The notes below the pieces were generated by a model. That model had not been told where the DNA came from. It did not search any database and saw nothing but the letters and a program-made list of their open reading frames with translations. DNA of 64,000 nucleotides from Malacoraja senta. Its lineage: Eukaryota. Positions 5,513 through 40,812 of this stretch are shown in pieces. The stretch's first letter is position 1. Each line of letters begins with the position of its first letter. Both the position numbers and the translations under genes were made by a program. The DNA is taken from assembly GCA_038087875.1 (NCBI GenBank), contig CM075988.1, positions 1,736,001 through 1,800,000 of the forward strand. The letters run 5' to 3'.

Positions 5513-5940
5513 CTCACAAAATATTGGAGCAACTCAGCAGGACGGGCAGCATCTTTGGAGAAGAATGCCGCATGTCCCGCTGAGTTACTCTAGCTTTTTG
5601 CGTTTCACGTGATGACAGCTGGATCTACAACTCCACCATTTGAAAAGGCCACTCGTGAGAAGCTGTTTTAGTGCAGCCAGGTCAGCTGCTGAGGATTTTA
5701 GTCATGTTTAAGAACACACACCATTCCCTCTTCCACCCCTCACCGTCCCCTCTGCCACCCTGCCTCCTCACTGTCTTATCTCCGCCCTCTCCCTCTCCCA
5801 CCCGTCTCCAACCCCTCACTGTCACCATCACCCCTCATTGTTCCACCCACTGCTGATTGATTCCGTCACTGGTCCTGCTGCTGCTGCCCATCACTGTCCT
5901 GCTTGCCCTCTCTCCTCCCTGCCAATGAGTTTAAAAATTC

Positions 5941-6225
5941 AGCACGGTGGCGCAGCAGCAGAGTTTGCACTAGAGACTCTACAGACAGCACCCATAGTCA
6001 GTATTGAACCAGAGTTTGTACATTGTAGTGACCCCATGGGTTTTCCCCAGGTGCTCCAGTTTCCTCCCACACCCCAAAGACGCACAGATTTGTAGGTTAA
6101 ATGGCATCTGTAAAAATTGTAAATTGTCCCAAGTGTGTGGTAGTGTGTGGGGATTGCTGGTCAGTGCGGACTCAGTGGGTTGGAGAGCCTGTTTCCGCGC
6201 TGAATCTCTAAACTAAACTAAACTA
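5941..6225 (+). mobile_element. HE1-like V-SINE (internally deleted)
   Basis: tRNA-like head gcacggtggcgcag, core gtttcctcccaca...aaagac, (TAAAC)n tail. Confidence 0.85.
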
Positions 6226-6590
6226 CACGTGGGTTCTTAGTCGATGGAATAAGAGTGATGGGCAAAAATGCCTGTGTCTGTTGTGACAAGGAAAAGATTA
6301 TCGTATCTTCAGCCCTTCTACCCAGAGCTCAGTTGTAGTTTCCGTATCAGCCTTTAGCCCACAAGAGGTCATAGCTTCACAATTAAAGGAGGAGGAGTTT
6401 TTTTAGTCACAATGTGATGAATCTCAAATTAATTGCAACAGTAGGCAGAGGAGGCCAAGTCTATGGATATTTTTAGGGCAGAGATGGATAGATTTTTGAT
6501 TAGTACAGGTGTCAGGGGTTCTGGGGAGAAAGCAGGAGAATGGAGTTAGGAGGGAAAGATCAATTAGCCATGATTGAATGGCAAAGTGGG

Positions 6591-6908
6591 TTTAGTTTAG
6601 AGATACAGCGCTGAAACAGGCCCTTCGGCCCACCGGGTCCGCGCCGACCAGCGATCCCCGCACATTAACACTATCCTACACTCACTAGGGAATTAAAAAA
6701 AAACATTTACCAAGCCTATAAACCTTCAAACCTTGTACGTATTTGAAGTGTGGAAGGAAACCGAAGATCTCGGAGAAAACCCACACAGGTTACGGGGAGA
6801 ACGTACAAACTCCGTACAGACAGCACCCACACACGTAGTCGGGATCGAACCTGGGTCTCTGGCGCTGCATTCACTGTAAGGCAGCAACTCTACCGCTGCG
6901 CCACCGTG
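6591..6908 (-). mobile_element. HE1-like V-SINE, full length
   Basis: On -: A-box tggcgcagcgg, B-box ggttcgatccc, core domain, CR1-like 3' end with (TAAAC)n. Confidence 0.92.
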
Positions 6909-7029
6909 ACTTGATGGGTTGAATGCCCTAATTCTGCTCCTTTCATTTATGAACCACAACTTTTTCCAATTCTCTGTCACTTTAATTCTCCATACTCCCA
7001 TACTCCCATTATGATCTACCCTAATGTTA

Positions 7030-7392
7030 CATAGAAAATAGGTGCAGGAGGAGGCCATTCGGCCCTTTGAGCCAGCACCGCCATTCATTGTGATCATCCC
7101 CTATCAATAACCCGTGCCTGCCTTCTCCCCAATATCCCCTGACTCCACTAGCCCCTGGAGCTCTATCTAACTCTCTCTTAAATCCATCCAGTGATTTGAC
7201 CTCCACTGCCCTCTGTGGCAAGGAATTCCACAAATTCACAATTCTCTGGGTGAAAAAGTTTTTTCTCACCTCTGTCCCAAATGGCCTCCCCTTTATTCTA
7301 AGACTGTGGCCCCTGGTTCTGGACTCGCCCAACATTGGGAACATTTTTCCTGCATCTAGCTGGTCGAGTCCTTTTATAATTTTATATGTTTC
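7030..7392 (-). mobile_element. CR1 3' end
   Basis: ETYKIIKGLDQLDAGKMFP...NLWNSLPQ and 3'UTR ending ttttctatgt. Confidence 0.9.
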
Positions 7393-7580
7393 AATACTGC
7401 CCAACAGAAGCTGAAGGAGCAGCACCTCATTTTCAATCTGGACACGTTGCATCTCTTGCAGTTTAATGTTGACTCTAGCAGTTCCGTCCGGTTGGTGCAG
7501 GACCTGCCCAGTTATATTCCGGCACTGCCACCTGCTGGTCAAATCAGCAATGCAGACGGCTGGAGCTAGAGGAGCACTAA

Positions 7581-8374
7581 TGGGCCTGTCCCACTTACGC
7601 GACTGCAGGAGACTCCGTGGTCGCCACATGTTCACTGGTGGTTGCCGGGGAGTCGCCTTCATGGTCGTGAGGAGTTCCCGCATTCTGGGAACTAGTCGCG
7701 GCCTCATTATGGTCACCGCAAATTTTTCAACATGATGAAAAAATAGCGTCGACCAGAATGAAGCCGCCATGAAGAGTAGCGAGAATTCTCGTGCCGTAGG
7801 TGGGTCGCCAGGAGGTCCTAGTGGGTCACCAGCAGGTCGAAGGTTCTCGTAGGTTGTAGCCAGTGCTGACTGGTGAATTTCATTGGCTCATTAGGGAAAA
7901 AAAACGTGAGCAGTAGTAAGCAGGATAACCGACTGGTAATGTTAATGTCCGCCGAGCTTCACAGCCGTGTATCTCTGGCTTCTTAAAAGTTGTCTTCACT
8001 CCTCCCCCCTTCTCCCACTTTTCACCCCCCTCTTTTAAAGGACTTGCGTGACCCTTCCCGTACACTGTGCTTTCACCGTCTTAATTACAGCGCCAACCTT
8101 CCTGTTCATCGCAGTGTGTGTCTGTATCACATTGGCTTTGCACCATATGAATTTCACTCAGACAGCGCTCCCCCCGCTTGCCCTGTCCCCCGCCTGCATA
8201 ACGGGCTGGTGAAGGAAGTTGTGTGTGTGTGTGTGCATGTGCGTGTGCGTGTGCGTGCGCGCGTGCGTGCGTGCGTGTGTTCCACTCCGATAGTCACCGT
8301 TTTTTCATGTGACTGCCGGCGACTTGAAAGTCGACGGCAGTCGCCTGAAGAATTGCCTAAGTGGGACAGGCCCA
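7581..8374. mobile_element. PIF/Harbinger-type MITE (794 bp)
   Basis: TIR TGGGCCTGTCCCACTTA / TAAGTGGGACAGGCCCA, TAA TSD on both sides; internal (TG)/(CG) tract 8220-8280. Confidence 0.92.
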
Positions 8375-8460
8375 TAATATTCCATACAGTGTTTGGCTGA
8401 GAGGGGATTGTTGAGTGTAGAAACAATTTTTAAAACAAGTGACATTTTTAAACCTGAAGC

Positions 8461-8640
8461 TGTAGCGGACGCGGAGTTGTCTCTTAAAGAACGGGGCAAA
8501 CACGAAGTTTGTCCAAAATTGTTATCCTTTATCGCTACACGAATTCTCCTCACTCACCAACCCCGTGCATGCGCGATTAACCCCTTAAATACTCCACAGG
8601 GGCACCCGTGACCACACCGTGACCACTACCTCTCGTCACA
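8461..8640 (-). mobile_element. Possible short solo LTR
   Basis: On -: TGTGACG...CGCTACA termini with TATTTAAG and GATAAA inside; CpG-rich. No TSD found. Confidence 0.3.
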
Positions 8641-9021
8641 GACACACTTGACCCCCCAAGAGCGTGGCCCATCACCTGGTGCTGCCACAACGCATTCTTC
8701 AAAGGGAAATCAATGTGACCACAAGCTCCAAGTACAAGTGTGAACAACCTGTGGGTCTTTGTGTTCACTCACCTGACAGGGCCTGTTCTTTATTCCCCTC
8801 TACTCATTTATGTATTTATAAAACAATTTCCTTGATTTTACCTGCTAATGTTTATCATACCCTTCCGAATACTATTTTGTTCTTGATGTAACCTGGGCAC
8901 TTTCTCCATCTTGCTGAGCTCTGTAAGCTTGTGATTTTGGTATTTATCGTTAATGTTGGGAATGTTCAGCAGGTCGAACAGCCTCTGCAGAGACAGATAC
9001 TCGGCATTCCAGGTGGGAAAA

Positions 9022-9309
9022 TTTAGTTTAGAGATACTGCGCAGAAACAGGCCCTTCGGCCCACCAAGTCTACGCCAACCAGCGATCCCCGCACATTAAC
9101 ACCACACTAGGGACAATTTACATTTATACCAAGCTAATTAACCTACAAACCTGTACTTCTTTGGAGTGTGGGAGGAAACCGAAGATCGCGGAGAAAACCC
9201 ACGCAGGTCATGGGGCGAACGTATAAACCTCGTGCAGACAGCATCCGTAGTCAACATCGAACCCTGGTCTCTGGCGCTGTAAAGGCGGCAACTCTCGTGC
9301 TGCGCCACC
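9022..9309 (-). mobile_element. HE1-like V-SINE
   Basis: Aligns by eye with 6591-6908. Confidence 0.9.
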
Positions 9310-9417
9310 CAGAAAACTGAAAACTAAAACATGGAGCTGTTGTGTTTGTATCTCAGATTTGCACAGAAAGAGGGATGTCTATGACAGTGCTGAGACCAGA
9401 CGATAATGGGTCTCAAG

Positions 9418-12400
9418 AGCAGAGAGGCAGGGGGGTGTAAAATGAAGGTAGAAGCAATAGGTAGCAAGGTGAAAAGTAAAAGTGGCAGGCAGACAAATCC
9501 AGGGCAAAAATCAAAAGGCCACTTTTCAACATAATTGTATAAGGGGTAAGAGTGTTGTAAAGACAAGCCTGAAGGCTTTGTATCTTAATGCAAGGAGCAT
9601 TCGTAATAAGGTGGATGAGTTGAATGTGCAGATAGTTATTAATGAATATGATATAGTTGGGATCACGGAGACATGGCTCCAGGGTGACCAAGGCTGGGAG
9701 CTGAACATTCAGGGATATTCAATATTCAGGAGGGATAGACAGAAAGGAAAAGGAGGCGGGGTAGCGTTGCTGGTTAGAGAGGAGATTAACACAACAGAAA
9801 GGAAGGACATTAGCTTGGAGGATGTGGAATCGATATGGGTAGAGCTGCGAAACACTAAGGGGCAGAAAACGCTAGTGGGAGTGGTGTACCGGCCACCTAA
9901 CAGTAGTAGTGGAGTTGGGGATGGCATCAAACAGGAAATTAGAAATGCGTGCAACAAAGGTAAAACCATTATAATGGGTGACTTCAATCTACATATAGAT
10001 TGGGTGAATCAAATTGGCAGGGGTGCTGAGGAAGAGGATTACTTGGAATGTATGCGGGATAGTTTTCTAAACCAACATGTAGAAGAACCAACGAGAGAGC
10101 AGGCTATTCTAGACTGGGTATTGAGTAATGAGGAAGGGTTAGTTAGCAGTCTTGTTGTGCGTGGCCCCTTGGGCAAGAGTGACCATAATATGGTTGAGTT
10201 CTTCATTAGGATGGAGAGTGACATTGTTAATTCAGAAACAAAGGTCCTGAACGTAAAGAAAGGTAACTTTGAGGGTATGAGACGTGAATTGGCCAAGATA
10301 GACTGGCCAATGATTCTTAAAGGGTTGACGGTGGATATGCAATGGAAGGCATTTAAAAACTGCATGGATGAACTACAACAAGTGTTCATCCCAGTTTGGC
10401 AAAAGAATAAATCAGGGAAGGTAGTGCATCTGTGGATAACAAGGGAAATCAGGGATAGTATCAAAACAAAAGAGGAACCCTACAAATTAGCCAGAACAAG
10501 CAGCCTACCAGAGGACTGGGAGAAATTCAGAGTCCAGCAGAGGAGGACAAAAGGCTTAATTAGGAAAGGGAAAATAGATTATGAAAGAAAACTGGCAGGG
10601 AACATAAAAACTGACTGCAAAAGTTTTTCTAGATATGTCAAGAGGAAAAGATTAGTTAAAACAAATGTAGGTCCCTTGCAGTCAGAAACAGGCAAATTGA
10701 TCATGGGGAACAAGGACATGGCAGACCAATTGAATAATTACTTTGGTTCTGTCTTCACTAAGGAAGACATAAATAATCTGCCGGAAATAGCAAGGGACCG
10801 GGGGTTAAATGAGATGGAGGAACTGAGTGAAATCCAGGTTAGTCGGGAAGTGGTGTTAGGTAAATTGAATGGATTAAAGGCCGATAAATCGCCAGGGCCG
10901 GGTAAGTTGCATCCCACAGTAGTTAAGGAAGTAGCCGCAGAAATAGTGGATGCATTAGTGATAATTTTTCAAAACTCTTTAGATTCTGGAGTAGTTCCTG
11001 AGGACTGGAGGGTAGCTAATGTAACCCCACTTTTTAAAAGGGAGGGAGAGAGAAAACAGGGAATTACAGACCAGTTAGTCTAACATCGGTGGTGGGGAAA
11101 ATTCTGGAGTCAGTTATTAAAGATGGGATAGCAGCACATTTGGAAAGTGGCGAGTTCATTGGACAAAGTCAGCATGGATTTATGAAAGGTAAATCATGTC
11201 TGACGAATCTTATAGAATTTTTCGAGGATGTAACTAGTAGAGTGGATAAGGGAGAACCAGTGGATGTGTTATATCTGGACTTTCAGAAGGCTTTCGACAA
11301 GGTCCCACATAAGAGATTAGCATACAAACTTAAAGCACATGGTATTGGGGGTTCAGTATTGATGTGGATAGAGAACTGGCTGGCAGACAGGAAGCAAAGA
11401 GTAGGAGTAAACGGGTCCTTTTCAGAATGGCAGGCAGTGACTAGTGGGGTACCGCAAGGCTCAGTGCTGGGACCCCAGCTATTTACAATATATATTAATG
11501 ATCTGGATGAGGGAATTGAATGCAACATCTCCAAGTTTGCGGATGACACGAAGCTGGGGGGCAGTGTTAGCTCTGAGGAGGATGCTAGGAGGCTGCAAGG
11601 TGACTTGGATAGGTTGGGTGAGTGGGCAAAGGCATGGCAGATGCAGTATAATGTGGATAAATGTGAGGTTATCCACTTTGGTGGCAAAAACAGGAAAGTA
11701 GACTATTATCTGAATGGTGGCCGATTAGGAAAAGGGGAGATGCAACGAGACCTGGGTGTCATGGTACACCAGTCATTGAAAGTAGGAATGCAGGTGCAGC
11801 AGGCAGTGAAGAAAGCAAATGGTATGTTAGCATTCATAGCAAAAGGATTTGAGTATAAGAGCAGGGAGGTTCTACTGCAGTTGTACAGGGTCTTGGTGAG
11901 ACCACACCTGGAGTATTGCGTACAGTTTTGGTCTCCTAATCTGAGGAAAGACATTCTTGCCATAGAGGGAGTACAGAAAAGGTTCACCAGACTGATTCCT
12001 GGGATGGCAGGACTTTCATATGAGGAAAGACTGGATACTCGGCTTGTACACGTTGGAATTCAGAAGACTGAGGGGGGATCTTATAGAAACTTACAAAATT
12101 CTTAAGGGGTTGGACAGGCTAGATGCAGGAAGATTATTCCCGATGTTGGGGAAGTCCAGAACTAGGGGTCACCGTTTAAGGATAAGAGGGAAGACTTTTA
12201 GGACCGAGATGAGGAAATCATTGTTTACACAGAGAGTGGTGAATCTGTGGAATTCTCTGCCACAGAAGGTAGTTGAGGCCAGTTCATTGGCTATATTTAA
12301 GAGGGAGTTAGATGTGGCCCTTGTGGCTAAAGGGATCAGGGGGTATGGAGAGAAGGCAGGTACAGGATACTGAGTTGGATGATCAGCCATGATCGTATTG

Positions 12401-12459
12401 AATGGCGGTGCAGGCTCGAAGGGCCGAATGGCCTACTCCTGCACCTATTTTCTATGTTT
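9418..12459 (+). mobile_element. Young CR1 (HER1-like) LINE, 5'-truncated, near-complete ORF2 (APE endonuclease + RT)
   Basis: YLNARSIRNK, GITETW, GDFN, SDH; RT QHGF, LDFQKAFD, GVPQGSVLGP, FADD. Frameshifts near 11040 and 12035; stop at 12373; TTTCTATG tail. Confidence 0.97.
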
Positions 12460-12532
12460 CAAAATAAAAAAATAAATGTGCTTCTGGTGTTGGATGATAA
12501 AGAAATGCAGAATGGTTCATTGTTTGTTAAGG

Positions 12533-12872
12533 GGAAGGTGACAACGAGGCATACAAACTCATATTTAATCAGGAGGGCAGTGAAACTAGTCGGAGAACTA
12601 GGGGATGGATGGAGAGGGAGGGAAAGCAAGGGTTATTTGAAGTCAGAAAAATCAATATCACTGGAGTGTAAGCTGCCCAATTGAAATATGACGTGCTGTT
12701 CCTCCAATTTATGTTGAATTACTCTGACAATGGGGAGGCCCAGGACAGAAAGGTCAGTTACAGTTAAAGTCCTGAGCAACCAGGAGATCCGGTCAGCCTA
12801 GGCAAACTGAGCAGAGGTATTCAGTGAAAGGATCGCTGAGCCTGCGCTTGGTCTCGCCCATATAGACGAGTC
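12533..12872 (-). mobile_element. Penelope-like element, GIY-YIG end and 3'UTR fragment
   Basis: On -: VYMGETKRRLSDPFTEYL...LEEQHVIFQLGSL; matches the copies at 20456-20985 and 50277-51330. Confidence 0.85.
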
Positions 12873-14251
12873 CTACAATAAGAGTCAGGCAGCATTTGTG
12901 AAGATAGTAGATTGGACATTTCAAACTGAGGTGCTTCTATCAACATTAACTTCATTTCTCTCACCACAGATGCCGGTATTGTCTTAATCATGTATTGTCT
13001 TTCTGCTCAACAAATGCTTTTCACTGTACTTCGGTACACGTGACAATAAACTCAACTAAACTCAACTGCTGATACTTGCAGCAAATGTGGTTTGGTTCAG
13101 ATAACTGGCAGTGGACATGTGCTCAAAACATTAGTTTTGCTTGCTGTGGTGTTTCAGACTTTGTTTCCTCCCCAGGCATCCGTGCCCCCCCTTCACACCC
13201 ACCCCCTCCCCCCCTTCAACCACTCCTGCCATCCACCCCTTCCTCATTCTCTCAGCTCCTTTATAATTTTATTTCTCAATTTTCCTTGTACTAATGGAAC
13301 GTCATTGATGTGAAACTTTATTAAGCATATTAACATGAAGAGATATCCTCTTTGTGTCCGGACTGGCAGCCTGGCCTCGAGGAGTTGCTGCACCCCCCCC
13401 CCCCCCGCCCCCCCACACACACACCGACCTCCTTGATGGTCTCTCTGCTCCCCGTCCTGTCATTTCATACAGTTTGATGTGTCTGGCAGTTCGCAGACAT
13501 GGGAGGTAGAACTGTTGCCTTGGATTGTTGTTGAGTAAACCTGGCAATCATTCACTGTTTAATCAGCATGGACAAACCTGAACCGGTTCTACTGCTCCAA
13601 CCAGTCACAATCACCTCAGGCTCGCATTGTTTCACAGCGAAGGAATGCCAGTCTAAAGTCAGGACTTCTCCTCCCTTACACAGAGCACTCACAATGGACA
13701 GGCAAGTGATCTTGAGTCATGGTGACACAAGGCCACCCTCTCCAACTGAGCAATGCTCATGTTTCTACTCTGTATAACACTCCTCCCTCATAACTGATCT
13801 CTCCCACACTACCCCACCCCAGAAGGGACATGGGTAGGGTACAGTGGAGCAGCTCACAGTTGCTGCCTCGCAGCTCCAAGGAGCCAGGTTCAATCCTGAC
13901 CCCAGGCGCTGTATGTGTGTGTGGAGTTTGCACGTCCTCCCTGTGATTGTGCAGGTTTCCCTGACAACCCAATGACGTGCGGGTTGGTAGGTTAATCACC
14001 CTGTCTATGTTGTCACCTTCAGGGAACAATGTACCTGTAACCCTAGATCTTTCAGTTAAATAACCATCCTCAGTCCTGCCTTTCACAGTGTATGTCCTGC
14101 CCACTATATTAATCCCACATGCCTGCATTCATTCCATATAGTGCCACAGAGACATACAGCACAGAAACAAGCCCGTCCATATAACCAAGATGTCTACCTG
14201 CGCTGGTCCCATCTACCTGAATTTGGCCCACATCACAGTAAACCTTGATAT

Positions 14252-14352
14252 ACCAGTCTGAAGAAGGGTCTCGACCCAAAACGTCACCCATTCCTTCTCT
14301 CCAGAGATGGTTCCTGTCCTGCTGAGTTACTCCGGCATTTTGTGTCTACCTT
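14252..14352 (+). mobile_element. Short PLE terminal-repeat (pLTR) insertion with mutated hammerhead motif
   Basis: CTGAAGAAGGGTCTCGACCCAAAACGTC (GAAA changed to AAAA), followed by the pLTR 3' sequence. Confidence 0.8.
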
Positions 14353-14365
14353 CACTTGAAACCTT

Positions 14366-14648
14366 GTAGTTTTAGTTTAGAGATGCAGCATGGAATCTGA
14401 GTCCACGCCAACTATCGATCACCCATACACTGGTTCTATGTTATCCCACTTTCGCATCCACTCCTACACACTGAAGGCAATTTACAATTAACCTGCAAAG
14501 ATCCATGTCTTTGGGATTATGGGAGGAAACTGAAGCACCCAAAGGAAACCCACGCAATTACAGGGAGAACATGCAAACTCCACACAGACAGCACCTGGGT
14601 CTGTGGTGCTACATGCAGCATCTCTATCAGCTGTTACACTGTGCTACC
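14366..14648 (-). mobile_element. Older HE1-like SINE
   Basis: Tail ttttagtttagagat, core ggaggaaac...aaactccacacagacagcacc. Confidence 0.8.
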
Positions 14649-14889
14649 TTTTCTATCCATGTACCTGTCTGAATTCCTTTTACATGTTAAAATTTTACTA
14701 CCCAGTCACTATTTTTAGCTCAAACCCTCCAATGCCAGTAACATCCTCATGAACTGGGTGATCAGAACAGATGTAACATGATGTCCCAACCCCTGTACTC
14801 ATTGATCTGATCAATAAAGGCAGTCTTCAGTACCCTATCTGTATTATTGCTTTCAGAGACCTCGCTATTGAGGATAACCAGAATGTCGC

Positions 14890-15092
14890 CGAATACTCTC
14901 CTGAATGGTAGAGAGCACATTGACTGCTTGCATCACGGCCTGGTTTGGCAACTCGAACTCCCAGGAATGAAGACTGCAAAAAGTGGTGAACACTACCCAG
15001 TCCATCACGTTCTGACCTCCCCACCATTGAAGGGATTTACAGGAGTCGCTGCCTCTAAAAGGCAGCCAGCATCATCAGAGGCCCACACCACA
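14890..15092 (+). mobile_element. Rex1/Babar LINE 3' fragment
   Basis: Similar to the Rex1 copies at 54900-55730 and 61430-62398. Confidence 0.75.
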
Positions 15093-15294
15093 CTCCTACT
15101 TAGATTTCTTGATGCACATGAAATGATTCTCACACCATCTTTGTCCTGAGCAGAGATGTGGGCTCAGGGATTCACTGAATGAAAGAAAGATCACAGTTGA
15201 GTATTCTTTGTTTTTAAAACCTTTCAAAACTAGGTTTAAATGTCTGTGGACCTAAAGCAGTGCTGTGTGTGACTAGACTATGTAGCACTAAATG

Positions 15295-20455: not shown

Positions 20456-20985
20456 AAGATAGACATAAAAATCTGGAGTAACCCAGCGGGTCAGACAGCA
20501 TCTCTGGAGAAAAGGAATAGGTGACATTTAGGATTGAGACCCTTCTTCAGACAGAGTCAGGGGAAAGGGAAACAAGAGATATAGACGGTGATGGTAGCGA
20601 GATAGAGAACAAATTAATGAAAGATGTACAAAAAAGTAACAATGATCAAGGAAACAGTCCATTGTTGGCTGTGGGCTAGAGAACACGTTATACAATGAAA
20701 CTCAACAGGATGACAGTGAGGGAGGGACGGTGAGAGAGAGAGAAGATGCAAAGGTTACCTGAAGTTAGAGAAATCAATATTCATATTGCTGGGTTGGAAG
20801 CTTGAAAAGCAAAATATGAGATGCTGTTCCTCCTATTTGCATTTGGCCTCACTCTGACAGTGGAGGAGGCCTAGGACAGAAAGGTCAGTGTGGGAATGGG
20901 GAAGGGAGTTAAAGTGTTTAGCAACCGGGAGATCACATAGGCCCAGGTGGACTGAGCGAGGGTGTTCAGTGAAACGATCGCCCAC
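20456..20985 (-). mobile_element. Penelope-like element 3' end (GIY-YIG, 3'UTR, pLTR with degenerate hammerhead)
   Basis: RRVGDRFTEHPRSV...LPVAKHFNS..HSHTDLSVLGLLHC, then CTGAAGAAGGGTCTCAATCCTAAATGTC at ~20550-20523. Confidence 0.9.
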
Positions 20986-21206
20986 TCTTCGCGAGGTGTC
21001 TTGAGAAAAGCCCATTTGAAAGTGAATAGTACTCAACCATAAAGTACACCATGTCACGGGCCAGCTGGGAGCAACCTGAAGTCAGCAACACATCTCGTGA
21101 CACAAGTCAAAGGGCAGGAGTTGACATCAACACAATCACCACAGTCGGTGGGGAATGGTGTAGAGACGTTCACAGCTGCAACCCCACTCTACAATGAGTA
21201 CACCAG

Positions 21207-21393
21207 GAGCTGCAGATGCTAGAATCTTGAACAAAACATAAAGTGCTGGAGGAACTCAGCAGGTCAGTCAGCATCTCTGGAGTGAATGGATATGTGATGT
21301 TTCGGGTTAGGGACTTTCTTCAGACTGGGAGAGTCTATTCCCTCCACAGATGCTACCTGACCAACTGAGTTCCTCCAGCACTGTGTTTTGCTC
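21207..21393. mobile_element. Fold-back element made of two inverted PLE pLTR halves
   Basis: gtgctggaggaactcag...gcatct / agatgct...ctgagttcctccagcac; degenerate hammerhead on - in the left arm. Confidence 0.75.
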
Positions 21394-21435: not shown

Positions 21436-22162
21436 ATATTCACTGGAGTTTAGAAGGATGAGGGGGGAATCTTATAGAAACATATAAAATTATAAAAGGA
21501 CTGGACAGGCTAGATGCAGGAAATTCCACAAATTCACAACTCTCTGGGTGAAAATGTTTTTTTTCACCTCAGTCCTAAATGGCCTCCCCTTTATTCTAAA
21601 GCCCCTGTCCCACAATGCGAGTTCATCCAAGAGCTCTCCCGAGTTTTAAAAAAAATCGAACTCGTGGTAAGTACGTAGAATGTACGTAGCGGGTGCGTCG
21701 GAGCTCATGGATGTCTTGTAGCGGCTCGTAATGCTAATGGCAGGTACTCTGGAAACGCGGAAAATCGTGAAGTTTTTTCAACGGTGTGAAAAATTTCCAA
21801 GAGTAAAAAAATACTCGTGATGAAGTAGCACGAGTTTGATTTTTTTTAAACTCGCATCATGTGACAGGGGCTTTAGAATAAAGGGGAGGCCATTTAGGAC
21901 TGAGGTGAGAAAAAATATTTTCACCCAGAGAGTTGTGAATTTGTGGAATTCCCTGCCACAGAGGGCAGTGGAGGCCAAATCACTGGATGGATTTAAGAGA
22001 GAGTTAGATAGAGCTTTAGGGGCTAGTGGAATCAAGGGATATGGGGAGAAGGCAGGCACGGGTTATTGATTGGGGATGATCAGCTATGATCACAATGAAT
22101 GGCAGTGCTGGCTCGAAGGGCCGAAAGGCCTCCTCCTGCACCTATTTTCTTTGTTTCTATGT
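21436..22162 (+). mobile_element. CR1 3' end carrying a MITE and a local inverted duplication
   Basis: YSLEFRRM...LDAG, then inverted segment 21522-21599, MITE, then RIKGRPF...GTGY* and 3'UTR. Confidence 0.9.
21600..21872. mobile_element. PIF/Harbinger-type MITE (273 bp)
   Basis: Imperfect TIR AGCCCCTGTCCCACAATGCGAGTT / AACTCGCATCATGTGACAGGGGCT, flanked by TAA/TTA; same family as 57251-57564. Confidence 0.88.
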
Positions 22163-22833: not shown

Positions 22834-22993
22834 GCTACAGTTTGCACAAATGAGCATTCACAGTCAGAAGAAAGATCTCGACCCGAAACGTCACCCATTC
22901 CTTCTCTCCAGAGATGCTGCCTGTCCTGCTGAGTTACTCCAGCATTTTGTGTCTATCTTTGATTTAAACCAGCATCTGCAGTTCTTTCGTACA
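22834..22993 (+). mobile_element. Short PLE pLTR insertion in the putative TMEM45B 3'UTR (antisense)
   Basis: Degenerate hammerhead CAGAAGAAAGATCTCGACCCGAAACGTC plus pLTR and tail; 12-bp TSD CAGTTACAAGCT (22822-22833 / 22994-23005). Confidence 0.82.
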
Positions 22994-25512: not shown

Positions 25513-26103
25513 AGTAATCTAGAGGGCATAAACCTAGTCAAACTTAGTAAAATTATTAGTAAAACTAGAGGGCATAGATTTAAGGTTAGGGGGGAAATAT
25601 TTAATTGGAAGTTAAGTGGCAACCTTCGCTAACAGAGGGTGGTGGGTGCATGGAACGAGCTGGTAGAGGATGCAGTAGAGGTGGCAACAATTAAATTACA
25701 TCTACACGGGGATATAGATGGGAAAGGTTGGGGGGATGTGGGCCATATGCAGCCAAATGTGAGTACACAGCTTGGTTGGCGCGGACAGGTTGGGCCGAAG
25801 GGCCTGTTTGGGTGCTGTATGACTGTGACTCCTGCACCACTCTGTGCATGAAATCTATGGCCATAGCTGGCCCTCTCCTGGTGCCTTGAAGCAGCAAGCA
25901 ATGGCCATCTCTTTAACCTGCACGCTGGTGTGAGTAAGAAATCTCAACACAATGATGAGGGACAGCTCCTGAGGGGAGAACACTGTCAAGGAATTCAGTT
26001 TTCAACTGTGTGACGTATTGAACAGGTACTGTGATGCAAGTCAGTGACAATAGTCACAAGCAAAGGGCCTTCTTGTTGTTACACACAGTGCTATATATAC
26101 TCA

Positions 26104-27108
<1,005 letters not shown>

Positions 27109-27343
27109 CGGCTCCATCAAACCGTGAAACTGAAGAATAACCTCTGTACCAATCAGAGACACTTCCTAAACTCCATTCACATCCACTGGCTGTCCATTGA
27201 ATTCCACAGGTACCGCCTGCTAAACTAAACACACTCACTGTGACCGTGTAGACTTAGTGACCGTGTAGACTTACAGTGAGCCTGTAGACTAAACCTATTC
27301 ACTGACCACTGCTACCCCTACACCAGAAGCTGGACATTGATGG

Positions 27344-27448
27344 ACACAAGGTGCTGGAGTAACTCAGCAGGTCAGGCAGCATCTGTGGAGAACATGGAAA
27401 CTGTCACCAATCAATGTTCTCCAGAGATGCTGCCTGACCTTCTGAGTT
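27344..27448. mobile_element. Fold-back pLTR palindrome
   Basis: aactcagcaggtcaggcagcatctgtggagaacat / atgttctccagagatgctgcctgaccttctgagtt; centre holds gaaactgtcacc, a remnant of the cleavage site. Confidence 0.8.
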
Positions 27449-27526
27449 GCACCTGCATTGTGTATCGCTTTGTGCATTAGCCAGCACCTGCAGTGCCTTG
27501 TGTCTGGGGCTCACCACTGATGGTCA

Positions 27527-27787
<261 letters not shown>

Positions 27788-27789: not shown

Positions 27790-28288
27790 ACTCACATTTA
27801 AACCTTTATATTTCACACCTCTTCTCTCCTTATCTGACCTCCCTTTTGCAATTGCTCCACCCATCTGTCAATCATCACCCTCTGTTGTCTCCATCTATCC
27901 CTTGCCAGGATAGACACAAAAAGCTGGAGTAACTCAGCGGGACAGACAGCATCTCTGGAGAGCAGGAATGGGTGACATTTCCGGACGAGACCCTTCTTCA
28001 GACTGAAGAAGATGCAGCCTGTCCCGCTGAGTTACTCCAGCTTTTGGTGTCCATCTTCGGTTTAAACCAGCATCTGCAGTTCCTTCCTACACGTATCACT
28101 TGCCAGGCTTTGTTCCACCCTAAATTCCCTTTTCCAGCTTCCTCCCCCTCCTCCATCAGTCTGAAGACGGGTCCCGACCCCAAAATATTGTCTGTCAACT
28201 CATCCACAGATGCTGCCTGAGCTGCTGAGTTACTCCAGCACTTTGTATTTTCCTCGCAATTCCAGCATCTACAGTTCCCTGCGTCTCC
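27790..28288. mobile_element. Old PLE 3'UTR/pLTR with a nested fold-back pLTR pair (27909-28092)
   Basis: Degenerate hammerheads at ~28002-27974 (-) and ~28161-28190 (+); tcacttgccagg/tcccttgccagg flank the nested piece. Confidence 0.75.
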
Positions 28289-31172: not shown

Positions 31173-31460
31173 TTTAGTTTAGTTCAGAGATACAGCGCGG
31201 AAACAGGCCCTTCGGCCCACCGAGTCCGCACCGACCAGCGATCCCCGCACATTAACACTATCCTACACACACTAGGGACAATTTACACATACACCACACC
31301 AATTAACCTACAAACCTGTATACAGTGTGGAAACAGGCTCTTCAGCCCAACTTGCCCACACTGGCCAACATGTCCCAGCTACACTGGTCCCACCTGCCAG
31401 AAGTTGGTCCATATCCCTCCAATCCTGTCCTATCCATGTACCTGACTAACTGTTTCTTAC
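31173..31460 (-). mobile_element. HE1 SINE 3' half plus CR1 3'UTR fragment
   Basis: (TAAAC)n tail and core; then cagcccaacttgcccaca...ctatccatgtacctg. Confidence 0.8.
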
Positions 31461-31489
31461 TGCCCATTCCCTCACTTTCTCATCAATTA

Positions 31490-32083
<594 letters not shown>

Positions 32084-32164
32084 TTCTTGCACTCAGGCAC
32101 CGACTCATTCCCATCGCTGATCAATCTTTTAATCTCATCCATCTACAGCTGTGAAGCCTCCTCT

Positions 32165-33002
32165 GCAAATGGCAGATGGAGTTTAACCCCACCAAGTGTA
32201 AGGTGTTTGAGGTGTTGAACTTTGGGAAGTGAGATTTAAAGGGAAACTATACAGTTAAAGGCAAGGTTGTTAACAGCACTGATGTACAAAGGGATCTTGG
32301 GGTGCAAGTCCAGGGAAAGTAGCAAGAGTTCAGACGGTGTATGGTACGCTTGCCTTCCTCAGTCAGAGCAATGAGCATAAGAATCCGGAAGTCATATTGC
32401 AGCTTTATAGGACTTTGGTCAGGCCTCATTCGGAGTATTATATGCAATGTGAGGGTGCAGAAGAGGTTTAGCGTGGTGTTATCTACATTAGAGGATTGTT
32501 TTGTCTGGAGCATCATCCCCTGCATGACAAACTGACAGCTAATTTTGTCCAAAGAGCCAGAAAAATTGCAGAATCTCTTGTGTTTCTGATGGAGGATCAA
32601 CACGAGGAATTTGAGCTCTTGAGACGTAATCGAAGTATGGACATAATAGAACTGCAAGAAATTATGAGAGCCATAGACAGAGTAGATGGTCAGAACTTTT
32701 TTCCCCAGGGTGAAAATGTCAAACACCTGTAACATAGCTTTAAGGACAATGCAGGAAGGTTCATAGGAGTTGTGAACGACACGTTTATCTACACAGAGAT
32801 TGGTGGGTGCCTGGAACTCTAGTGGTGGTGGAAAGAGATACGATAGTGGGCTTTTACAGGCTTTTAGTTAGGCACATGGATATGCAGGGAATGGAGTGAT
32901 ATGGATCACGTGCAGAGAGAGGAGATTAGTTTAACTTGGCATCATGTTCGGCATAGACATTGTGGGTAGATGGATCTGTTCCTGTGCTGTAATGTTCTAT
33001 GC
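32165..33002 (+). mobile_element. Old CR1 3' fragment
   Basis: Degenerate WQMEFNP.KC.V, DLGVQV and 3'UTR similarity. Confidence 0.75.
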
Positions 33003-33499
33003 CATGTGACTTTACCCACATACTCCCAATAACATTTGTTATAATGGAACTAATTTGGTCTTAACTACAATAAGAACAGAAAATACTTGACCGAGTACAA
33101 ATACAGATGAAATACCATTTGCGGAGAAAGAAAAACATGGTTAATGTTTTAAGTCAATGATTCTGCTGCTCAACCTGCTGAGTATGTTCAAACAAAGGCA
33201 TAGAGTACTGGAGAATCTCCAACATTTTCTGCTTTCATTGCAGTTTTTTGCTTCTTACCCTGGTCCTGACTATTTCTGGTCCTGACTATTTCTGCCACTG
33301 ACTGGAAGATCTGCAATATCTTTTGATCCGGTCCCTCGCTGGTCACTACACTCACTTTTTCAGGTATGTCGTTGCCTTCTCAAGCCTGAACGAGAAACTT
33401 CCTTGTGAGGACCAGAGGAAATCTATCCTTGTTCGATCTGCAGAGGGGGAGCGAGAGCAGAACTGCACATCAGAGGAGACACAGGTGAGGGACCCATCT

Positions 33500-35392
33500 A
33501 CAGTAGTGAGGGGCGTAAACCTAGTTTACTGAAGAAAGGACATCTCGGATGTCCCGGAGTGGAAAGCTACATCTTGGGAGCAGATTTAGATTTTACTTTA
33601 GTGATATACCACGGAAACAGGCCCACCAAGTCCATGGCAACCAGCAAGCATCCTACACACTAACAATATCCTTCAATTTTACCAAAGCCAATTAACCTAT
33701 AAACCTGTACATCTTTGGAGTGTGGGAGGAAATCGGAACTCCCGGAGAAAACCCACACGGACACAGGGAGAACATACAATCTGCGTACAGACAGCACCCG
33801 TAATTAGGATGAATCCCGAGTCTCTGGTGCTATAAGGCAGCAACTCTACCGCTGCGCCACCGTGCTGCCCATAACTATGCCTTGCAATGTAATAATTTTC
33901 CCAATCATTGTCTCTCCTAACATGACCTTCACGTGACCTTCACTATGTTGGGCTCTATTCCCATCATGCTTGAATGCGATGAGACAGAGAAACTGAAAGT
34001 GATGGCATCCTTGGAAGGGGCAGGATGGGGGGAGGTGTAGTCAAGATAAATGTGGGAGTTGCTGGGTTTGTAGTAGACTTCAGTACATGTTATGTTCCCT
34101 GTGATGGAGAGACAGAAATCGAGGAAGGGGAGAAAGGTGACAGATAGTCTAAGTGAATTTGAGGCAGGGTCGAAGTTGGTAATAAAGTTGTTGAAATCAA
34201 CAAGTTCTGCACGGGTGTAGGAGACAGTCATCGATGTAGTGGAGAAAGAGTTGGAGAATCTTGCCAGGTATGTGTATGGACCAAGGAACGATTAACGTAA
34301 CCAAAAGGGGCGCAGCGGTAGAGACCCAGGTTCAATCCTGACTATGGGTGCTATCTGTTCGGAGTTTGTATGTTTTCCTTGTGACTTGCGTGGGTTTTCT
34401 CCAGGATCTCCAGTTTCCTCCCACACTCCAAAGACATACAGGTTTGTAGGTTAATTCGCTTGGTATTATTGTAAATTGTCCCTTGTGTGTGTGTAGGATA
34501 GTGTTAATGTGCGGGGATTGCTGGTCGGTGTGGACTCAGTGGCCGAAGGGCCTGTTTCCGCGCTGTATCACTAAAATAAACTAAACAAAATGGCATAGCT
34601 GCAGTTCATTTACGTGGCTAGATGTTTGATTTGGCGATAGTGAGAGGAATCATGAGTGATTGAGGGCGAGGACAGGTTGTGCCAGGCAGAGGAGAGTGTT
34701 ATAGAGGGGAGCTGATTGGGTCTCAGTTCAAGGAAGAACCGGAGGGTGTTGAGATCTCCCTGGTGGGAATGGAGGTGGAACGCACGTCCACGGCAAATAT
34801 GAAGTGATGGGGGCCTAGGAATTGAAAGTTATTGAACTGTTGAAGACCATGTGAGGTGAATTGGACATAGATTGGAATGGACTGGACAAAATGGAACAAG
34901 ATAGAATTGAGGTATTTGGAGATTTCAATGGGGCAAAAACAGGCAGAAATAATGGGTCTGCCAGGGCAGTCCTGTTTGTAGATAATAGACAATAGACAAC
35001 AGGTGCAGGAGTAGGCCATTCCGCCCTTCGAGCCAGCACCGCCATTCAATGTGATCATGGCTGATCATCCCCAATCAGTACCCCGTTCCTGCCTTCTCCC
35101 CATATCCCCTGACTCTGCTATTTTTAAGAGCCCTATCTAGCTCTCTCTTGAAAGCATCCAGAGAACCTGCCTCCATCGCCCTCTGAGGCAGAGATCTTGG
35201 GAAGGAGATACAAACAGGCAGAGTGGGGATGGGAAACTGTAGGTTTGGAGGCCGGGGAGGGGGGATGGCCAGAGATGGTGTGATCGGAGGGGGTTTGGGA
35301 GATGATGGTGTGTGGGGTCATGGACAAGGGATTTGTAGGTATGAGGAGGTGTCTGAGAGTTGATGCCTGGTCTCAGCTGGCTTCAACTCAGC
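33500..35392 (-). mobile_element. Degenerate Penelope-like RT fragments interrupted by HE1 SINEs (33586-33870 -, 34310-34585 +) and a CR1 3' end (34985-35192 -)
   Basis: LYLLPKI, KQDCPGRPIISAC, LPFLDF...VYYKPSNSHIYLDYTSPHP PLE RT motifs. Confidence 0.85.
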
Positions 35393-37768
35393 ATGGTCTC
35401 CAGCAAAAAAAAAAGATTCCTTCCTTCACTTTGCAGTATTTTGAAGGGACTATATCTCCAGTGATAACCTGCTTCATTCCTCATCCCAACAAACACAAGT
35501 TATTCACACAATACCTACCCCAACAAGCAGAGAAGATACAACAACTATTGCTTTACCTTCTCACCTAGCACCATGCAAGGCGGAACAGCAATTACTATAC
35601 ACTGTACATTGGAATGGATCATAACGCACAGCATAGGCCCCTCAGCTCACAGTACAGATGTACAATAATCTCCCAATGCAACTGGTGCAACAATCAGTGC
35701 CACCCATTCTACAGTGGGAGGCCCAATGGTCATCAGGGGACTGATTTTGGAAACAACGTCCCTTCATCTCACATATGAACCTTACCTCCTCTTACCTGTC
35801 ACGTGAATTCTCCATTCCTACTCAGTCCTCTCTGTGCTCAGCTTCTGGTCATTGCAGGCATTATATTTATCACATCTAATACCACTTGATACAGATATTA
35901 GATTACAGGACACAAGAAGCAGAAGTCGGAATGGGGCAATTGCCATTCAAGTCTATCCCTGACCTCGGTTTCTCTTTCCTGTATAAATTCTTCTTTTCCC
36001 CTAAGATTTCTAACTGTGTTGCTCTGGATATTTGTCTTGACTATGCTCTGCATCTGTGCCCCCAGAGCTCGTGGCTTGGGAATTACAAAAGTTCATAACA
36101 CGTAAGATGCTAACGTTTCTTCTCATCTGTGTCCTGGCTATCCAACTTCTTATTTCAAGACTGTGACCCCTAGCATTATGAACACAAAGTCAATGTCAAA
36201 TAATGAAACTACATCTCCTATTTCTGTCTTAAAGCTGCCCGTTATTCTGCACCAACTCCTTTACCTTAGGTTTTCATCCTGCGCTCTCAATATTGTCGTG
36301 TGATCTTTCCTTTCCTCCACACTCTCACAGACTCTCCCTCTTATTCCTGTCTGCCTGCATGAATGTAAGAGCACAGGAAGATGTGGTGGCCAGTTACCCC
36401 CCCTTCCACCATCACAGATCTTTTACCCGAGCACCATTTTCCCCACTAACACCGTCGCCTGATTCCCTCAATATAAATAACCTTTCAATGCCTTGAATAT
36501 GTTCAGCAACTTGAGTTTCACATGGCTGAAAATTCCAAAGATTTGTCATCCTCTAGTGTATCTGGTGGAAAATATTTGTCTTTAATTGTCCTGAATGGCC
36601 AACCCCTTATTTTGAGTGTGATCCATGGAACAATGCAGCCCATATAGGGGAGATATCATAAAGTGATACATAGAGTCATACAGCGTGGAAACAGATCCTT
36701 CGGCCCAACTAGCACAATCTTTGCATCCATCGTGTCAAGCCCCTTAAGAACTTTGTTTCCCTTATGTTTCTAACCAGATAGGAGGCCATTCAGCCCATCA
36801 AATCTATTCTGCTTCTCAGAACAATCCTACCACTCCCATTTCCTCCTTGATTTCACTTTAACCTATTCTCTCACATACCATTAACTCCTTCATCTCCAAT
36901 TCTCCTGTATACACTGAGGCATTTCACCTACCGCCCAACCTGTCTTGTTGGGATGTGATGAGAAACTGAAGCACCCGAGGAAAGCACATGCAGTGTTGTG
37001 CAGAATGTGCAAACTCCACATAGACAGCTGCAGATTAAGCCGGGGTTGCGGAAGATGTGAAGCAGCAGCACCACTACCTGCTGCGCCACTGTGTATGCTT
37101 CGATGAGTCTACTGAGAGCCATAGAGTTATACAACATGGAAAAAGGCTCTTTGGTTCAACTGGTTCATGCCACCAAGGTGCTTACCCGAGTTAGACCCAT
37201 TGCCCATAACCCTCTCAACCCCTTCTACCCATGTACCTGTCCAAATGTCCTTTAAATGTTGTTATTGTGCCTGCCTCTGCCTCTTTCTGTGGCATCTCGC
37301 TGCAGATGCTGACCACCCTGTGTGTGAAAACATCGCTCGGCAGGTCCCCTTTAAATCTTTCCCATCTCTCCTTAAAACCTTGCCCCCTACCCTGGGAAAA
37401 AGCCAGTGACTTTGTCTTTGCTCCTCTAAGCAGCCCTCTCTTAAATACATGTCAACCGTACACACTCCAAAGGAAAAAAGCCTTTGCCTATCCAGTTATA
37501 ACAACTTGCCCCCAGTCCCAGTTTCACCTTGTGAATCTTTTCTGCACCTATTCGAGGCTTCTTATAGCTAAATGACCAGAACAGCACACAATATTTCAAG
37601 TGTGGTATCACAAACAATCTGGTCAATTTTAACATTAGTCCCCATTTCTTGTTCTCAGTACATTAACTGATAAAGGCAAGCATGCTAAACACCTTCTTCA
37701 CCATTGTCTAAATATGTCACCACTTTCAGGGATCTATGTATTTGTACTGTGTATGTATCTATGTATTT

Positions 37769-37852
37769 GTCTGAAGAAGGGTCTCGACCCGAAACGTTGC
37801 CTATTTCCTTCGCTCCATAGATGTTGCCTCACCCGCTGAGTTTCTCTCGCAT
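37769..37852 (+). ncRNA. Hammerhead ribozyme motif (intact core, weak stem I) in a short pLTR insertion
   Basis: CUGAAGA-A-GGGU(CUCG)ACCC-GAAA-CG-UU at 37771-37798; stem I only ~2 bp because the insertion starts at the core. Confidence 0.6.
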
Positions 37853-38399
37853 GTATTTGTACCGCTCAGACTCACTGTTCCACTCTCCATTGCCTTGCCT
37901 TTTACTGTGGTCCTTGGGTTACTTTTCCAGATGATCTAGATCCTGTTGTAATCTTATAAATCCTTGTTCACTGTCCACTATACTGCCAGTTTTGGTGGCA
38001 TCCGCAAACATATCAATCATGCCAACTACATTTTCATGCAAATCGTTAATATAGTTGACGAACAACGGTGGACCCATCACTGATCTGTGCAGTAGACCAT
38101 TGGTCCAGGCCTCTAATCTGAAAAACAACTCACCAATTCTTACCACCAAGCCAATTTTGTATCCCGTTCGTGAGCTCATACTGCATGACCTGTGATCTAA
38201 CCTTCCAGACAATCCCAATCACGTGGGACCTGTCAAAGACCTTGCTCGTCCACCTGGACAATGCCCACCATCTTGCCTTCATCAATCTTCTTGCTCGTCT
38301 TTTCAAAAAATTCAATCAAATTTGTGAGACAGACTGACTATTCCTAATGTCCTTCCCTTTCCAAATGATCCTGTTTCTCAGAATCATCTTACCCACCAC

Positions 38400-38801
38400 T
38401 ACAAAGCCCTCAATGGGCTTGCCCCCACCTACATTAAAAGTCTTCTCACCCACCACTCCACCTCCAGGTCCCTCAGATCGGCCGACTTGGGGTTGCTGAA
38501 TATCCCGCGGTCTAGGCATACGCTCAGGGGCGACCGCGTCTTTGCGGTTGCAGCTCCTAGACTGTGGAACAGCATCCCCTTTCCCATCAGAACTGCCCCC
38601 TCCATCGACTCCTTTAAGTCAAGACTAAAGACTTATCTATACTCCCAAGCCTTTCTTGACGTCCTCTGAGCGAGGGCTATATGTATATATGTATGTAGTT
38701 TGTTTGTTTATACTATTCTTATAACAAATGTAAAGCACTTTGGCCAACGAGAGTTGTTTTTTAAATGTGCTATATAAATAAATGTGACTTGACTTGACTT
38801 G
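38400..38801 (+). mobile_element. L2 LINE 3' end
   Basis: RGDRVFAVAAPRLWNSIP...FKSRLKTYLY; (GACTT)n tail. Confidence 0.92.
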
Positions 38802-40325
38802 TTGTCAGGCTCACTGGCCTGTAGTTCCCAGGCTCATCCTTGCACTCCTTCTTAAATAAAGAAACAAAAGTCACCCGTAAGTTTTTCGGTACCTCGCCAG
38901 TAGTATTAAAGATGATACAAATAACTCTGCTGGGGCCCCTGTAATTTCTTCCCAGGCTTCCCATTATGTCCTGGACTACACTTGGTCAGGATGCCAAGAC
39001 TTATCCACCTTTCTGCACTTTTAAGACCACCGGCTCCTCCTCTTTTGGAATGTGGACGTCTTTCAAGATATCACTGTTCTATTTCCTGAAATCCTTAGCT
39101 TCCATGATCCTTTCCACATAAGATACAGAAGAGAACTAGTCATTTCAGACTGCCAGCATGGCCTGGCTCCACTCACTGATAACCACATTCATCCTTAATG
39201 GGCCTTATTCTCCGTTGTTGCCCTTTTGCTCATTAATAGAATCTCCATGATCTGCCACAAGTTATCTCATGGTCTCTTTTTGCCATTGTGATTCCCCTCT
39301 TCAGTTTACTCCGACATCCCTTTTACTCTTCAGTGTTTTTTTTTAACTTCAGCTGCATCAACCCCTCAACCCCTTTTAAACTCTCACTATTTAAGAAAAG
39401 CTCTGCCCTTGTTTGTTTTTCCTGCATCATATTCTATCAGCCATAGTCTTGCCCTCATTTCATTTGTTGCTACTTAAAACTTGTTTTGTCTCCAGATTTT
39501 CCCAGTTGTAACCTGATGAACTTGAAGTATTAACTGTTTCTTTCCCCACATGCTGCGTGACCCGTCATGTTTTATCAGCGTTTTTGATGGTGGCCTCCCT
39601 AAAGAGTCGACATTGCTCTTTGATTCAGTGTGCTCTCTCATCCAATCTGTTGCCAACGATTTTGTTGTAACTATTCCAGAAAATACATCAACGTACAAGA
39701 CATAAATAAATCTTTAATATCTATGAATTATACAAGTAACCCCCCTCCCGTTATAGAGTTTGCGTATCTGGAAAATGGCCTATATTGTGATTTTCAGTAA
39801 CATGAATGCACCATCTACGCATACAAGAAAACAAGTTATTTACCTTCTTTTCACACAAACCCTGTGAGAGTGAATTTACATAATCCAAATGGGCATGACC
39901 CAATGGTTGCCTGCAAAAGTGGATGATGTAGTCATTCTTCAGCAGTCTAACTGTCCCTAGTATCAAGGTTAATTTGCTTTTTCCAATCCATTAGCAAACA
40001 TAGCCTCTCATTACTTTCCTTTAGCTAGTTAATTGTTGCAATGACTTTACAAAAAGGCCAGTACAATCAGCAGATCTGTAAACATTCTACAATGCATTCT
40101 CTGTTCTGCCAAACTCTGACTTCATTTGCTTTTGCTTCCAGCACCTCCACACCATGATATCTCCTCACACCACCTGTGATATCACTCTGAATATCCCTTC
40201 AATTCCCAGTCTATCTTCAGGTCTGTTAACTGGGAATATTTACTTCTAAATGAAGCCAGTTTGTACCTTGGTCTCCACAATGGCCACTGCACTGTACACT
40301 GGAGCCCAACCTGTGTTTCTAATTT

Positions 40326-40812
40326 TGTTTGGTTTAGTTTAGAGATACAGCAGGGAAACAAACTCTTCAGTCCACACCGCCCATCAATCACTCGTCCACA
40401 TTAGTTCTGAGTTATCCCACATTCTTATCCACTTCCGACATACTAGAGGCAATTTACAGAGGCCAATTAACCAACAAACCCGCACGTCTTTGGGATGTGG
40501 GAGGAAACTGGGGAACCTGGTAGAATCCCACGCAGTCACAAGGAGAAGTTACAAACTCCACACAGACAGCACCCGAGGTCAGAATCGAACCTGGGTCTCT
40601 GTCACCATGAGGCAACAACTCTACCTGCTGGTAGACACAAAATGCTGACGTAACTCAGCAGGTCAGGCAGCATCTCTGGAGAGAAGGTAAGATTCCTTCT
40701 CTCCAGAGATGCTGCCTAACCCACTGAGTTACTCCAGCATTTTGTGTTTACCTTTGATTTAAACCAGCATCTGCAGTTCTTTCCTACACAACTCCACCTC
40801 CTGTGCCACTGT
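40326..40812 (-). mobile_element. HE1 SINE interrupted by a fold-back pLTR element (40631-40788)
   Basis: SINE tail/core; insert flanked by imperfect 15-bp TSD caactctacctgctg / caactccacctcctg. Confidence 0.85.

Follow-up and report, generated by a model that had tools for sequence, protein, structure and literature searches.

Inverted, 5′-truncated copies bearing a tail on one side only are standard for Penelope-like elements (PLEs; PMC8557442, PMC8969392). In the complex insertions described for endonuclease-positive PLEs (EN+ PLEs; PMC8557442, PMC3846280), pseudo-long terminal repeats (pLTRs) lie head to head, a tail of 30–40 bp is present at one end only, the junctions are palindromic and target-site duplications (TSDs) of 8–10 bp surround the whole unit. 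The same arrangement is found in five fold-back elements within a 64,000-nt stretch of Malacoraja senta DNA (assembly GCA_038087875.1, contig CM075988.1, positions 1,736,001 to 1,800,000 of the forward strand), termed "the window" in the following and used for all coordinates given below. These fold-backs differ from the described insertions in that their arms are only 45–135 nt long and enclose no open reading frame. Judged from their sequence, they are very probably dead-on-arrival, head-to-head pLTR insertions of an EN+ PLE with a Neptune/Nematis-type linker. The structure itself is already known for PLEs, and the literature explains the junction by self-priming; the non-nested arms observed here, in contrast, point to two complementary DNAs (cDNAs). 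In a search made mostly without subscription papers or repeat databases we found no publication mapping fold-back junctions against the hammerhead cleavage site or proposing twin priming for PLEs, and the accessible sections of PMC5753468 do not mention hairpin PLEs.

PAc, a Poseidon element of Anolis (PMC11167929), likewise has two 3′ boundaries about 35–40 nt apart downstream of its pLTR hammerhead and does not need cleavage for insertion; it differs from the present family in belonging to the Poseidon clade and in having been studied in vitro. The minimal type I hammerheads of PLE pLTRs (PMC4209133) show the same CUGANGA/GAAA core as the family described here, with a bulged base in front of a helix II of 4–5 bp and no real helix III. 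In most of them, however, helix I comprises 4–5 bp, compared to 2 bp in the main subfamily of the window. Opposite-strand dual hammerhead motifs, 100–700 bp apart, have already been noted (PMC4209133). Non-LTR retrozymes (bioRxiv 10.64898/2026.07.22.740005) likewise derive from pLTRs, are short and non-coding and contain a type I hammerhead, yet they form head-to-tail tandem arrays, whereas the fold-back family consists of single or head-to-head copies, with no tandem array among its 21 matches in the window.

Inverted-repeat, BLAST and profile searches of the window reveal head-to-head palindromes at all five places at which the first-pass annotation had reported them. The inverted-repeat search returned 40630–40752 (58-nt arms with 7 nt between them), 27343–27466, 21235–21389 and 27909–28055, while the palindrome at 5515–5605 was detected by BLAST and profile search. 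Folding as DNA of the four units other than that at 21207 gave z = −17.2, −11.0, −10.5 and −4.2, with none of 200 shuffles being as good. Junction positions are counted from C17 of the NUH triplet (0), so that the next base is +1 and the CUGA box starts at −27. The PLE 3′ end at 50278–51368 (− strand; CUGA position 50370, cut after 50343) serves as the reference, and "cut" denotes throughout the predicted hammerhead site, cleavage being read from the motif.

The fold-back at 5515–5605 (no strand assigned) is decayed; its arms start at about +10 and +18, and neither tail nor TSD was detected. In the second fold-back (21204–21392, − strand) a tailed arm (21204–21330), sense on the − strand and starting at −34, contains the whole hammerhead core from 21323 and faces a tailless arm (21333–21392) starting at about +5; here, too, a TSD was not detected. 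The third (27339–27503, + strand) combines a tailless arm (27339–27399, from +6) with a tailed arm which starts at 27397 (−7) and harbours GAAAC at 27397–27401 and GTC at 27403–27405. Its 9-bp TSD candidate is not significant compared to random placements. In the fourth (27909–28092, + strand) the tailless arm (27909–28006) extends from −32 and includes the whole hammerhead, the tailed arm begins at 28010 (+20), an inner 9-bp palindrome is centred on 28002, and a 14-bp TSD (27896–27909 / 28094–28107) surrounds the unit. The fifth (40630–40788, + strand) consists of a tailless arm (40630–40687, from +8) and a tailed arm from 40692 (+5), separated by four unassigned bases; its tail of about 35–38 nt is one-sided and its TSD comprises 16 bp with 2 mismatches (40615–40630 / 40788–40803). 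The earlier description of this unit, with its arms starting shortly 3′ of the predicted cut, is thereby borne out.

Four of the five fold-backs carry a one-sided tail. Tailless arms end at +60 to +66, which is also the 3′ end of the tailless single-orientation copies of the family, and tailed arms end near +95 to +103. Against a null of 399 random placements, TSDs are significant for the units at 27909 and 40630 (14 and 16 bp; p 0.013 and 0.018) and not for those at 5517, 21207 and 27344. Among 11 single-orientation copies, TSDs of 8, 10, 13 and 13 bp exceed the null for four, with two further borderline cases (p 0.043), so that p is below 0.03 for two fold-backs and four single copies with lengths varying between 8 and 16 bp; a wider search added 12-bp repeats at 22861 and 49198. 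Because the junctions all differ and the TSDs are long and variable, the fold-backs are retroposed elements rather than miniature inverted-repeat transposable elements (MITEs), as the first-pass annotation had proposed.

A family profile built from the window copies gave 21 strong matches corresponding to 16 loci, i.e. the five fold-backs and the 11 single-orientation copies; its E-values are circular because the profile derives from the same copies that it then finds. The setting is repeat-rich animal DNA with many remnants of long interspersed nuclear elements (LINEs) of the apurinic endonuclease (APE) type. In two copies the family sequence adjoins GIY-YIG coding ends. The first is a broken, 5′-truncated PLE (50278–51368, − strand) comprising an end of the reverse transcriptase (RT), linker remnants of the form C-x4-C-x2-C, a GIY-YIG end, a 3′ untranslated region (UTR), a hammerhead motif and a tailless 3′ end. 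The second, a further PLE 3′ end (20456–21018, − strand), shows a GIY-YIG remnant, UTR and hammerhead, with a 10-bp TSD candidate (p 0.043). Segments 50825–50592 and 21018–20761 match the C-terminal part of protein P0001 (67% and 59%), which itself has a weak Pfam GIY-YIG match (E 0.008, below the cut-off); the window coding pieces alone matched no Pfam family. An Atlas lead indicated GIY-YIG in 21% of one cluster. Among named proteins, the nearest relative of a coding remnant comes from a skate (68% identity), which points to a cartilaginous fish. GIY-YIG thus lies 5′ of the terminal sequence, as in EN+ PLEs. The RT-end fragments are broken and were recognised by eye. The C-x4-C-x2-C motif near 50985 corresponds to the CX2-5CxxC linker between RT and endonuclease (EN) described for Neptune/Nematis (PMC8557442).

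The hammerhead core, with at most one change per box, is present in 10 of the 12 copies examined, 8 of which can also fold helix II. The CUGANGA and GAAA boxes, taken with this helix and an NUH site, make up a minimal type I hammerhead. Helix I, in contrast, falls short of the 4–6 bp expected: nine of ten copies have at most two contiguous pairs, as does the main subfamily (2 bp), and only the copy at 42220 has seven. A 2-bp helix I has been described for Penelope of D. virilis. Rfam returned no hammerhead match in the window, and its hairpin matches, including microRNA (mir) matches at 40655, are all sub-threshold.

At the scale of whole genomes, contigs from four of the 23 listed runs, three of DNA and one of RNA, were aligned to 50268–50620, with 153,558 to 188,787 aligned contigs per DNA run. 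Run X11 stems from another species; the RNA run, X22, is a fragmented single-cell library, likewise of another species. The first-pass annotation had predicted a peak of inversion breakpoints at the NUH site, which is not what the joints listed reveal. Strand switches account for 12 of the 15 joints listed out of 376, and every one of these 12 pairs an end at −23 to −32 with an end at +1 to +14. The best-supported one, −24/+13, is represented by 14, 15 and 11 contigs, while two joints with the second end at +1/+2 are represented by 1, 1 and 6. In the rows listed, free 5′ ends adjoining unrelated flanks accumulate at −24, −29 and −30 in all three DNA runs (824–1525 contigs each); those at −24 are clipped by a mismatch to the reference, and the consensus runs on to −30. 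Among the 24 loose-end rows listed out of 1815, six per run, no peak occurs at the cut. A reading of the −24/+13 joint as a 6-nt microhomology was dropped, as the overlap column gives 0–2 and both places are clipping points.

Search with a general hammerhead motif yielded at least 118 metagenome loci (L001–L118) that resemble PLE minimal hammerheads, mostly with a better helix I than the window family; motif and two 3′ boundaries suggest that they originate from PLEs. As an observation in its own right, these unrelated PLE-like families share the geometry of the window family, their two 3′ boundaries falling at about +55 to +65 and about +90 to +105. The general pattern had no match in viral contigs, and patterns specific to the window family had none in viral or metagenome contigs. 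An inverted partner was sought in the 106 metagenome rows with sufficient flank, the threshold being 40 and the shuffled null maximum 32. From the 28 rows reaching at least 40, six were dropped (L026, a simple repeat; L040 and L070, inverted repeats without pLTR; L049, L074-1 and L087-1, duplicates), which leaves 22 fold-backs of other animals. Because these were selected for a hammerhead in one arm, the set is blind to units of the 40630 type and tests the start of the second arm only. Partner arms start between −167 and +40, 16 of the 22 begin 5′ of the cut, and the interval from −13 to +15 contains no start (p ~0.04 for the 18 between −55 and +40, if starts were uniformly distributed).

The arms of the fold-back at 27909 cover −32 to +65 and +20 to +102, so that neither is contained in the other; the base at its centre, 28002, belongs to the tailless arm as read by eye. 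Non-nested arms are also found in L020 (−56 to +62 and +16 to +91), L006 (−32 to +58 and −24 to +116), L101 and L051. Such arms cannot stem from the snap-back of one cDNA, whose copy must nest in its template. TSDs surround the whole unit in L006, L020, L074 and L087; being bounded in this way, L020 and L006 each represent one event. Twin priming of L1 elements offers a precedent: the second target strand primes a second cDNA, which results in an inversion, a microhomology join and one TSD. L1 inversions, however, contain no duplicated sequence, whereas the fold-backs do, which requires two templates or the reuse of one. For PAc, the tail boundaries have been traced to a pair of RT start sites; nicking and extension were shown for both target strands, and an RT dimer is predicted (PMC11167929).

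We judge it somewhat likelier than not to be true that each unit arose by twin priming on two templates, each of the two target strands priming its own cDNA and the pair then being joined head to head. The GIY-YIG endonuclease would nick both target strands in a staggered manner, giving rise to TSDs of 8–16 bp, and each 3′-OH would prime its own cDNA. Start of RT at a distal site (about +100) would produce the tailed arm and start at a proximal site (about +60 to +66) the tailless one, whereupon the two 5′-truncated cDNAs would be joined head to head, often via a few shared bases. Most templates would be uncleaved, with the commonest 5′ stop at −29/−30, just 5′ of the CUGA box, at an initiator-like TCAGT site which is perhaps the 5′ end of the transcript. 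Hammerhead cleavage would be unnecessary.

Several observations weigh against this account. Arms are nested, and hence also compatible with snap-back, in three of the four tailed window units and in L013, L063, L074, L087, L099 and L117; 12 of the 22 metagenome units are unclassifiable in this respect, and non-nested arms could have arisen by later deletion. Four of the ten window arms begin at +5 to +8 (p ~0.02, with the bin chosen afterwards and the arms not independent), and a residual surplus of short arms, at +1 to +14, falls outside the account. In the contigs, −24 (50367) and +13 (50330) are also points of alignment clipping, with 0–2 in the overlap column; the joints rest on 15 of 376 rows and the loose ends on 24 of 1815, with inexact junction bases, and runs X5 and X6 possibly have the same source as the window. 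Short-armed perfect hairpins may be under-recovered in contigs. Finally, 5′ ends of the metagenome loci become steadily sparser 5′ of CUGA, with 31 of 45 located within 32 nt, and form no sharp peak, so that the reading of the boundary as a start site may be specific to the window family or wrong.

Whether the −30 boundary is the transcription start site we regard as evenly balanced. TCAGT at −30 resembles the initiator consensus. An internal promoter resides in the pLTR of D. virilis Penelope (PMC2377424), and rotifer pLTRs contain initiator-like sites (PMC3846280). We also considered that the boundary might be due to a 3′ splice site at −28; a polypyrimidine tract followed by CAG at −28 and the D. 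virilis intron ending at helix I speak in its favour, while the consensus of the loose ends shows no conserved upstream exon. A short master copy is a further alternative. The first unaligned base 5′ of copies starting at −30 (50373) reads as G on the sense strand in each of the three DNA runs, as a consensus letter only; it could be a copied cap base. A fall in RNA depth at 50375 was dropped as evidence of a 5′ boundary, as the loose ends there carry on beyond an indel of the reference into UTR sequence and the fall is largely an effect of alignment.

Of the competing explanations, a route in which one cDNA or antisense template primes itself or snaps back at short inverted repeats, irrespective of the cut and with EN resolving the hairpin at the tail boundary, survives best, although we consider it unlikely. 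Self-priming has been proposed for inverted PLE junctions and palindromes (PMC3846280), and the tail has been ascribed to EN-mediated resolution (PMC8557442). The leader contains a 6-nt inverted repeat (−23 to −18 / +8 to +13) which adjoins the best-supported joint, and the nested arms of nine units would agree with this route. The five units with non-nested arms do not; moreover, the 6-nt overlap expected at the −24/+13 joint is absent from the report of joints, and the end of the tailless arm falls on what was mapped in vitro, for a related element, as an RT start site.

Less probable still, when taken in full with its cleaved templates, is a reading of PLE fold-backs as traces of double target-primed reverse transcription, in which an RT dimer carries two RNAs, one per RT start site. 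In the window family one template would usually be an uncleaved leader copied as far as its 5′ end at −30, and the other would sometimes be a hammerhead-cleaved 3′ product, which would account for short arms that begin at +1 to +8. The two-cDNA part of this reading, by itself, has the likelihood given above.

Two independent insertions, or an inversion or deletion after insertion, have a small probability only. The lack of a significant TSD at 5517, 21207 and 27344 is compatible with them, as are an arm-to-arm identity of 0.69–0.92 and the finding that the fold-back partner is the top match for just one of ten arms; arm-to-arm identity, though, does not discriminate among the models. Against them, the orientation is always head to head with the tail on one side only, the TSD encloses the whole unit at 27909, 40630, L006, L020, L074 and L087, and both arms of a unit share subfamily bases in the alignment.

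The first-pass annotation had regarded the fold-backs as a footprint of ribozyme activity, RT running to the end of a self-cleaved RNA and the cDNA then snapping back. As the main route, this is not supported, and we deem it highly improbable. Of the five units only that at 40630 fits (+5/+8). The start of four window arms at +5 to +8 also speaks for this model, as does the range of +1 to +14 occupied by the second ends of the 12 listed joints, of which two lie at +1/+2. That the units are built from pLTR sequence 3′ of the hammerhead, however, holds for 5517 and 40630 and fails for 21207 (−34), 27909 (−32) and 27344 (−7). Three of the five units thus contain sequence 5′ of the cut, two of them (21207 and 27909) the whole core, and such sequence cannot come from a 3′ cleavage product. 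The cleavage-site remnant noted at the centre of 27344 is indeed present, but it includes GAAAC and GTC, which are absent from the 3′ cleavage product. The tailed arm, which would be the first cDNA, starts at −34, −7, +20 and +5, and hence only one of four fits run-off at the cut. All 12 listed strand-switch joints have an arm crossing the cut, the main 5′ boundary in the contigs is at −24 to −30, and neither the loose-end rows listed nor the metagenome partner arms, selected as stated above, cluster at the cut. Helix I of the main subfamily has only 2 bp. In addition, single minimal hammerheads did not cleave in vitro (PMC4209133), hammerhead mutants left in vitro insertion unchanged and no RNA-seq ends were seen at the cut in Anolis (PMC11167929). 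RNA run X22 shows no site at which molecules begin or end en masse, a weak result in view of its fragmented single-cell library from another species. A minor contribution of cleaved RNA would be the residual reading of the arms at +5 to +8 and the second joint ends at +1 to +14. An ordinary DNA-transposon MITE with one founder, to which the hairpin shape and true MITE-like elements elsewhere in the window might point, is virtually untenable, as each of the five units has its own junction, the copies belong to several subfamilies, the TSDs measure 14 and 16 bp, the tail is one-sided and the arms are homologous to a PLE 3′ end; the fixed short TSD and uniform structure of such elements are not found among the window copies.

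Single-orientation copies on the + strand are located at 14254–14357 (from −31; 8-bp TSD), 22861–22993 (tailed, from −31; perfect 12-bp TSD), 28140–28285 and 59312–59475 (both tailed and reaching into the upstream UTR), 37769–37852 (from −29; 10-bp TSD), 42214–42314 (from −29 to −36; 13-bp TSD; representing a second subfamily, in which helix I has 7 bp) and 48980–49296 (about 220 nt of upstream UTR; 12-bp TSD with 1 mismatch in the wide search). On the − strand lie 43410–43502 (from −24/−26; 13-bp TSD) and an old copy at 43710–43784, whose 5′ end is uncertain (+1 to −13 depending on the reference). Taking all 11 single copies together, the start lies at −24 to −36 in 5 and deeper in the UTR in another 5, the remaining one being the uncertain case. 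Between the perfect TSD and the 22861 element, 27 unassigned bases (22834–22860) may be filler or captured DNA; they have no match elsewhere in the window. A third GIY-YIG fragment (12585–12938, − strand) with a weak pLTR-like match just upstream is possibly a partial tandem, and frames at 33929–34291 and 55859–56425 (− strand) resemble other PLE RT fragments by eye, with no Pfam match.

A MITE-like element at 21516–21956 has short terminal inverted repeats (about 21602–21870) and is flanked by an inverted duplication, about 90 bp long, of the surrounding LINE; more MITE-like elements with related terminal inverted repeats lie at 52199–52732 and 57250–57565. Hairpins unrelated to the PLE family are present at 62879–63077 (64-nt arms, 26 nt between) and 63352–63425 (34-nt arms, 6-nt loop). 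A GC-rich minisatellite (26035–27116) is followed by an apparent host coding exon at about 27550–27730 (− strand).

Hairpins of the kind described here can be mistaken for MITEs or, as the sub-threshold mir matches at 40655 illustrate, for microRNA precursors. The origin of inverted pLTRs, the start of the leader and the role of cleavage are described as open in PMC8557442 and PMC11167929. With about 150,000–190,000 contigs per run containing the family, one assembly could decide between two primed cDNAs and snap-back. The same set of junctions could place the start of the leader RNA and show whether hammerhead cleavage ever shapes insertions.

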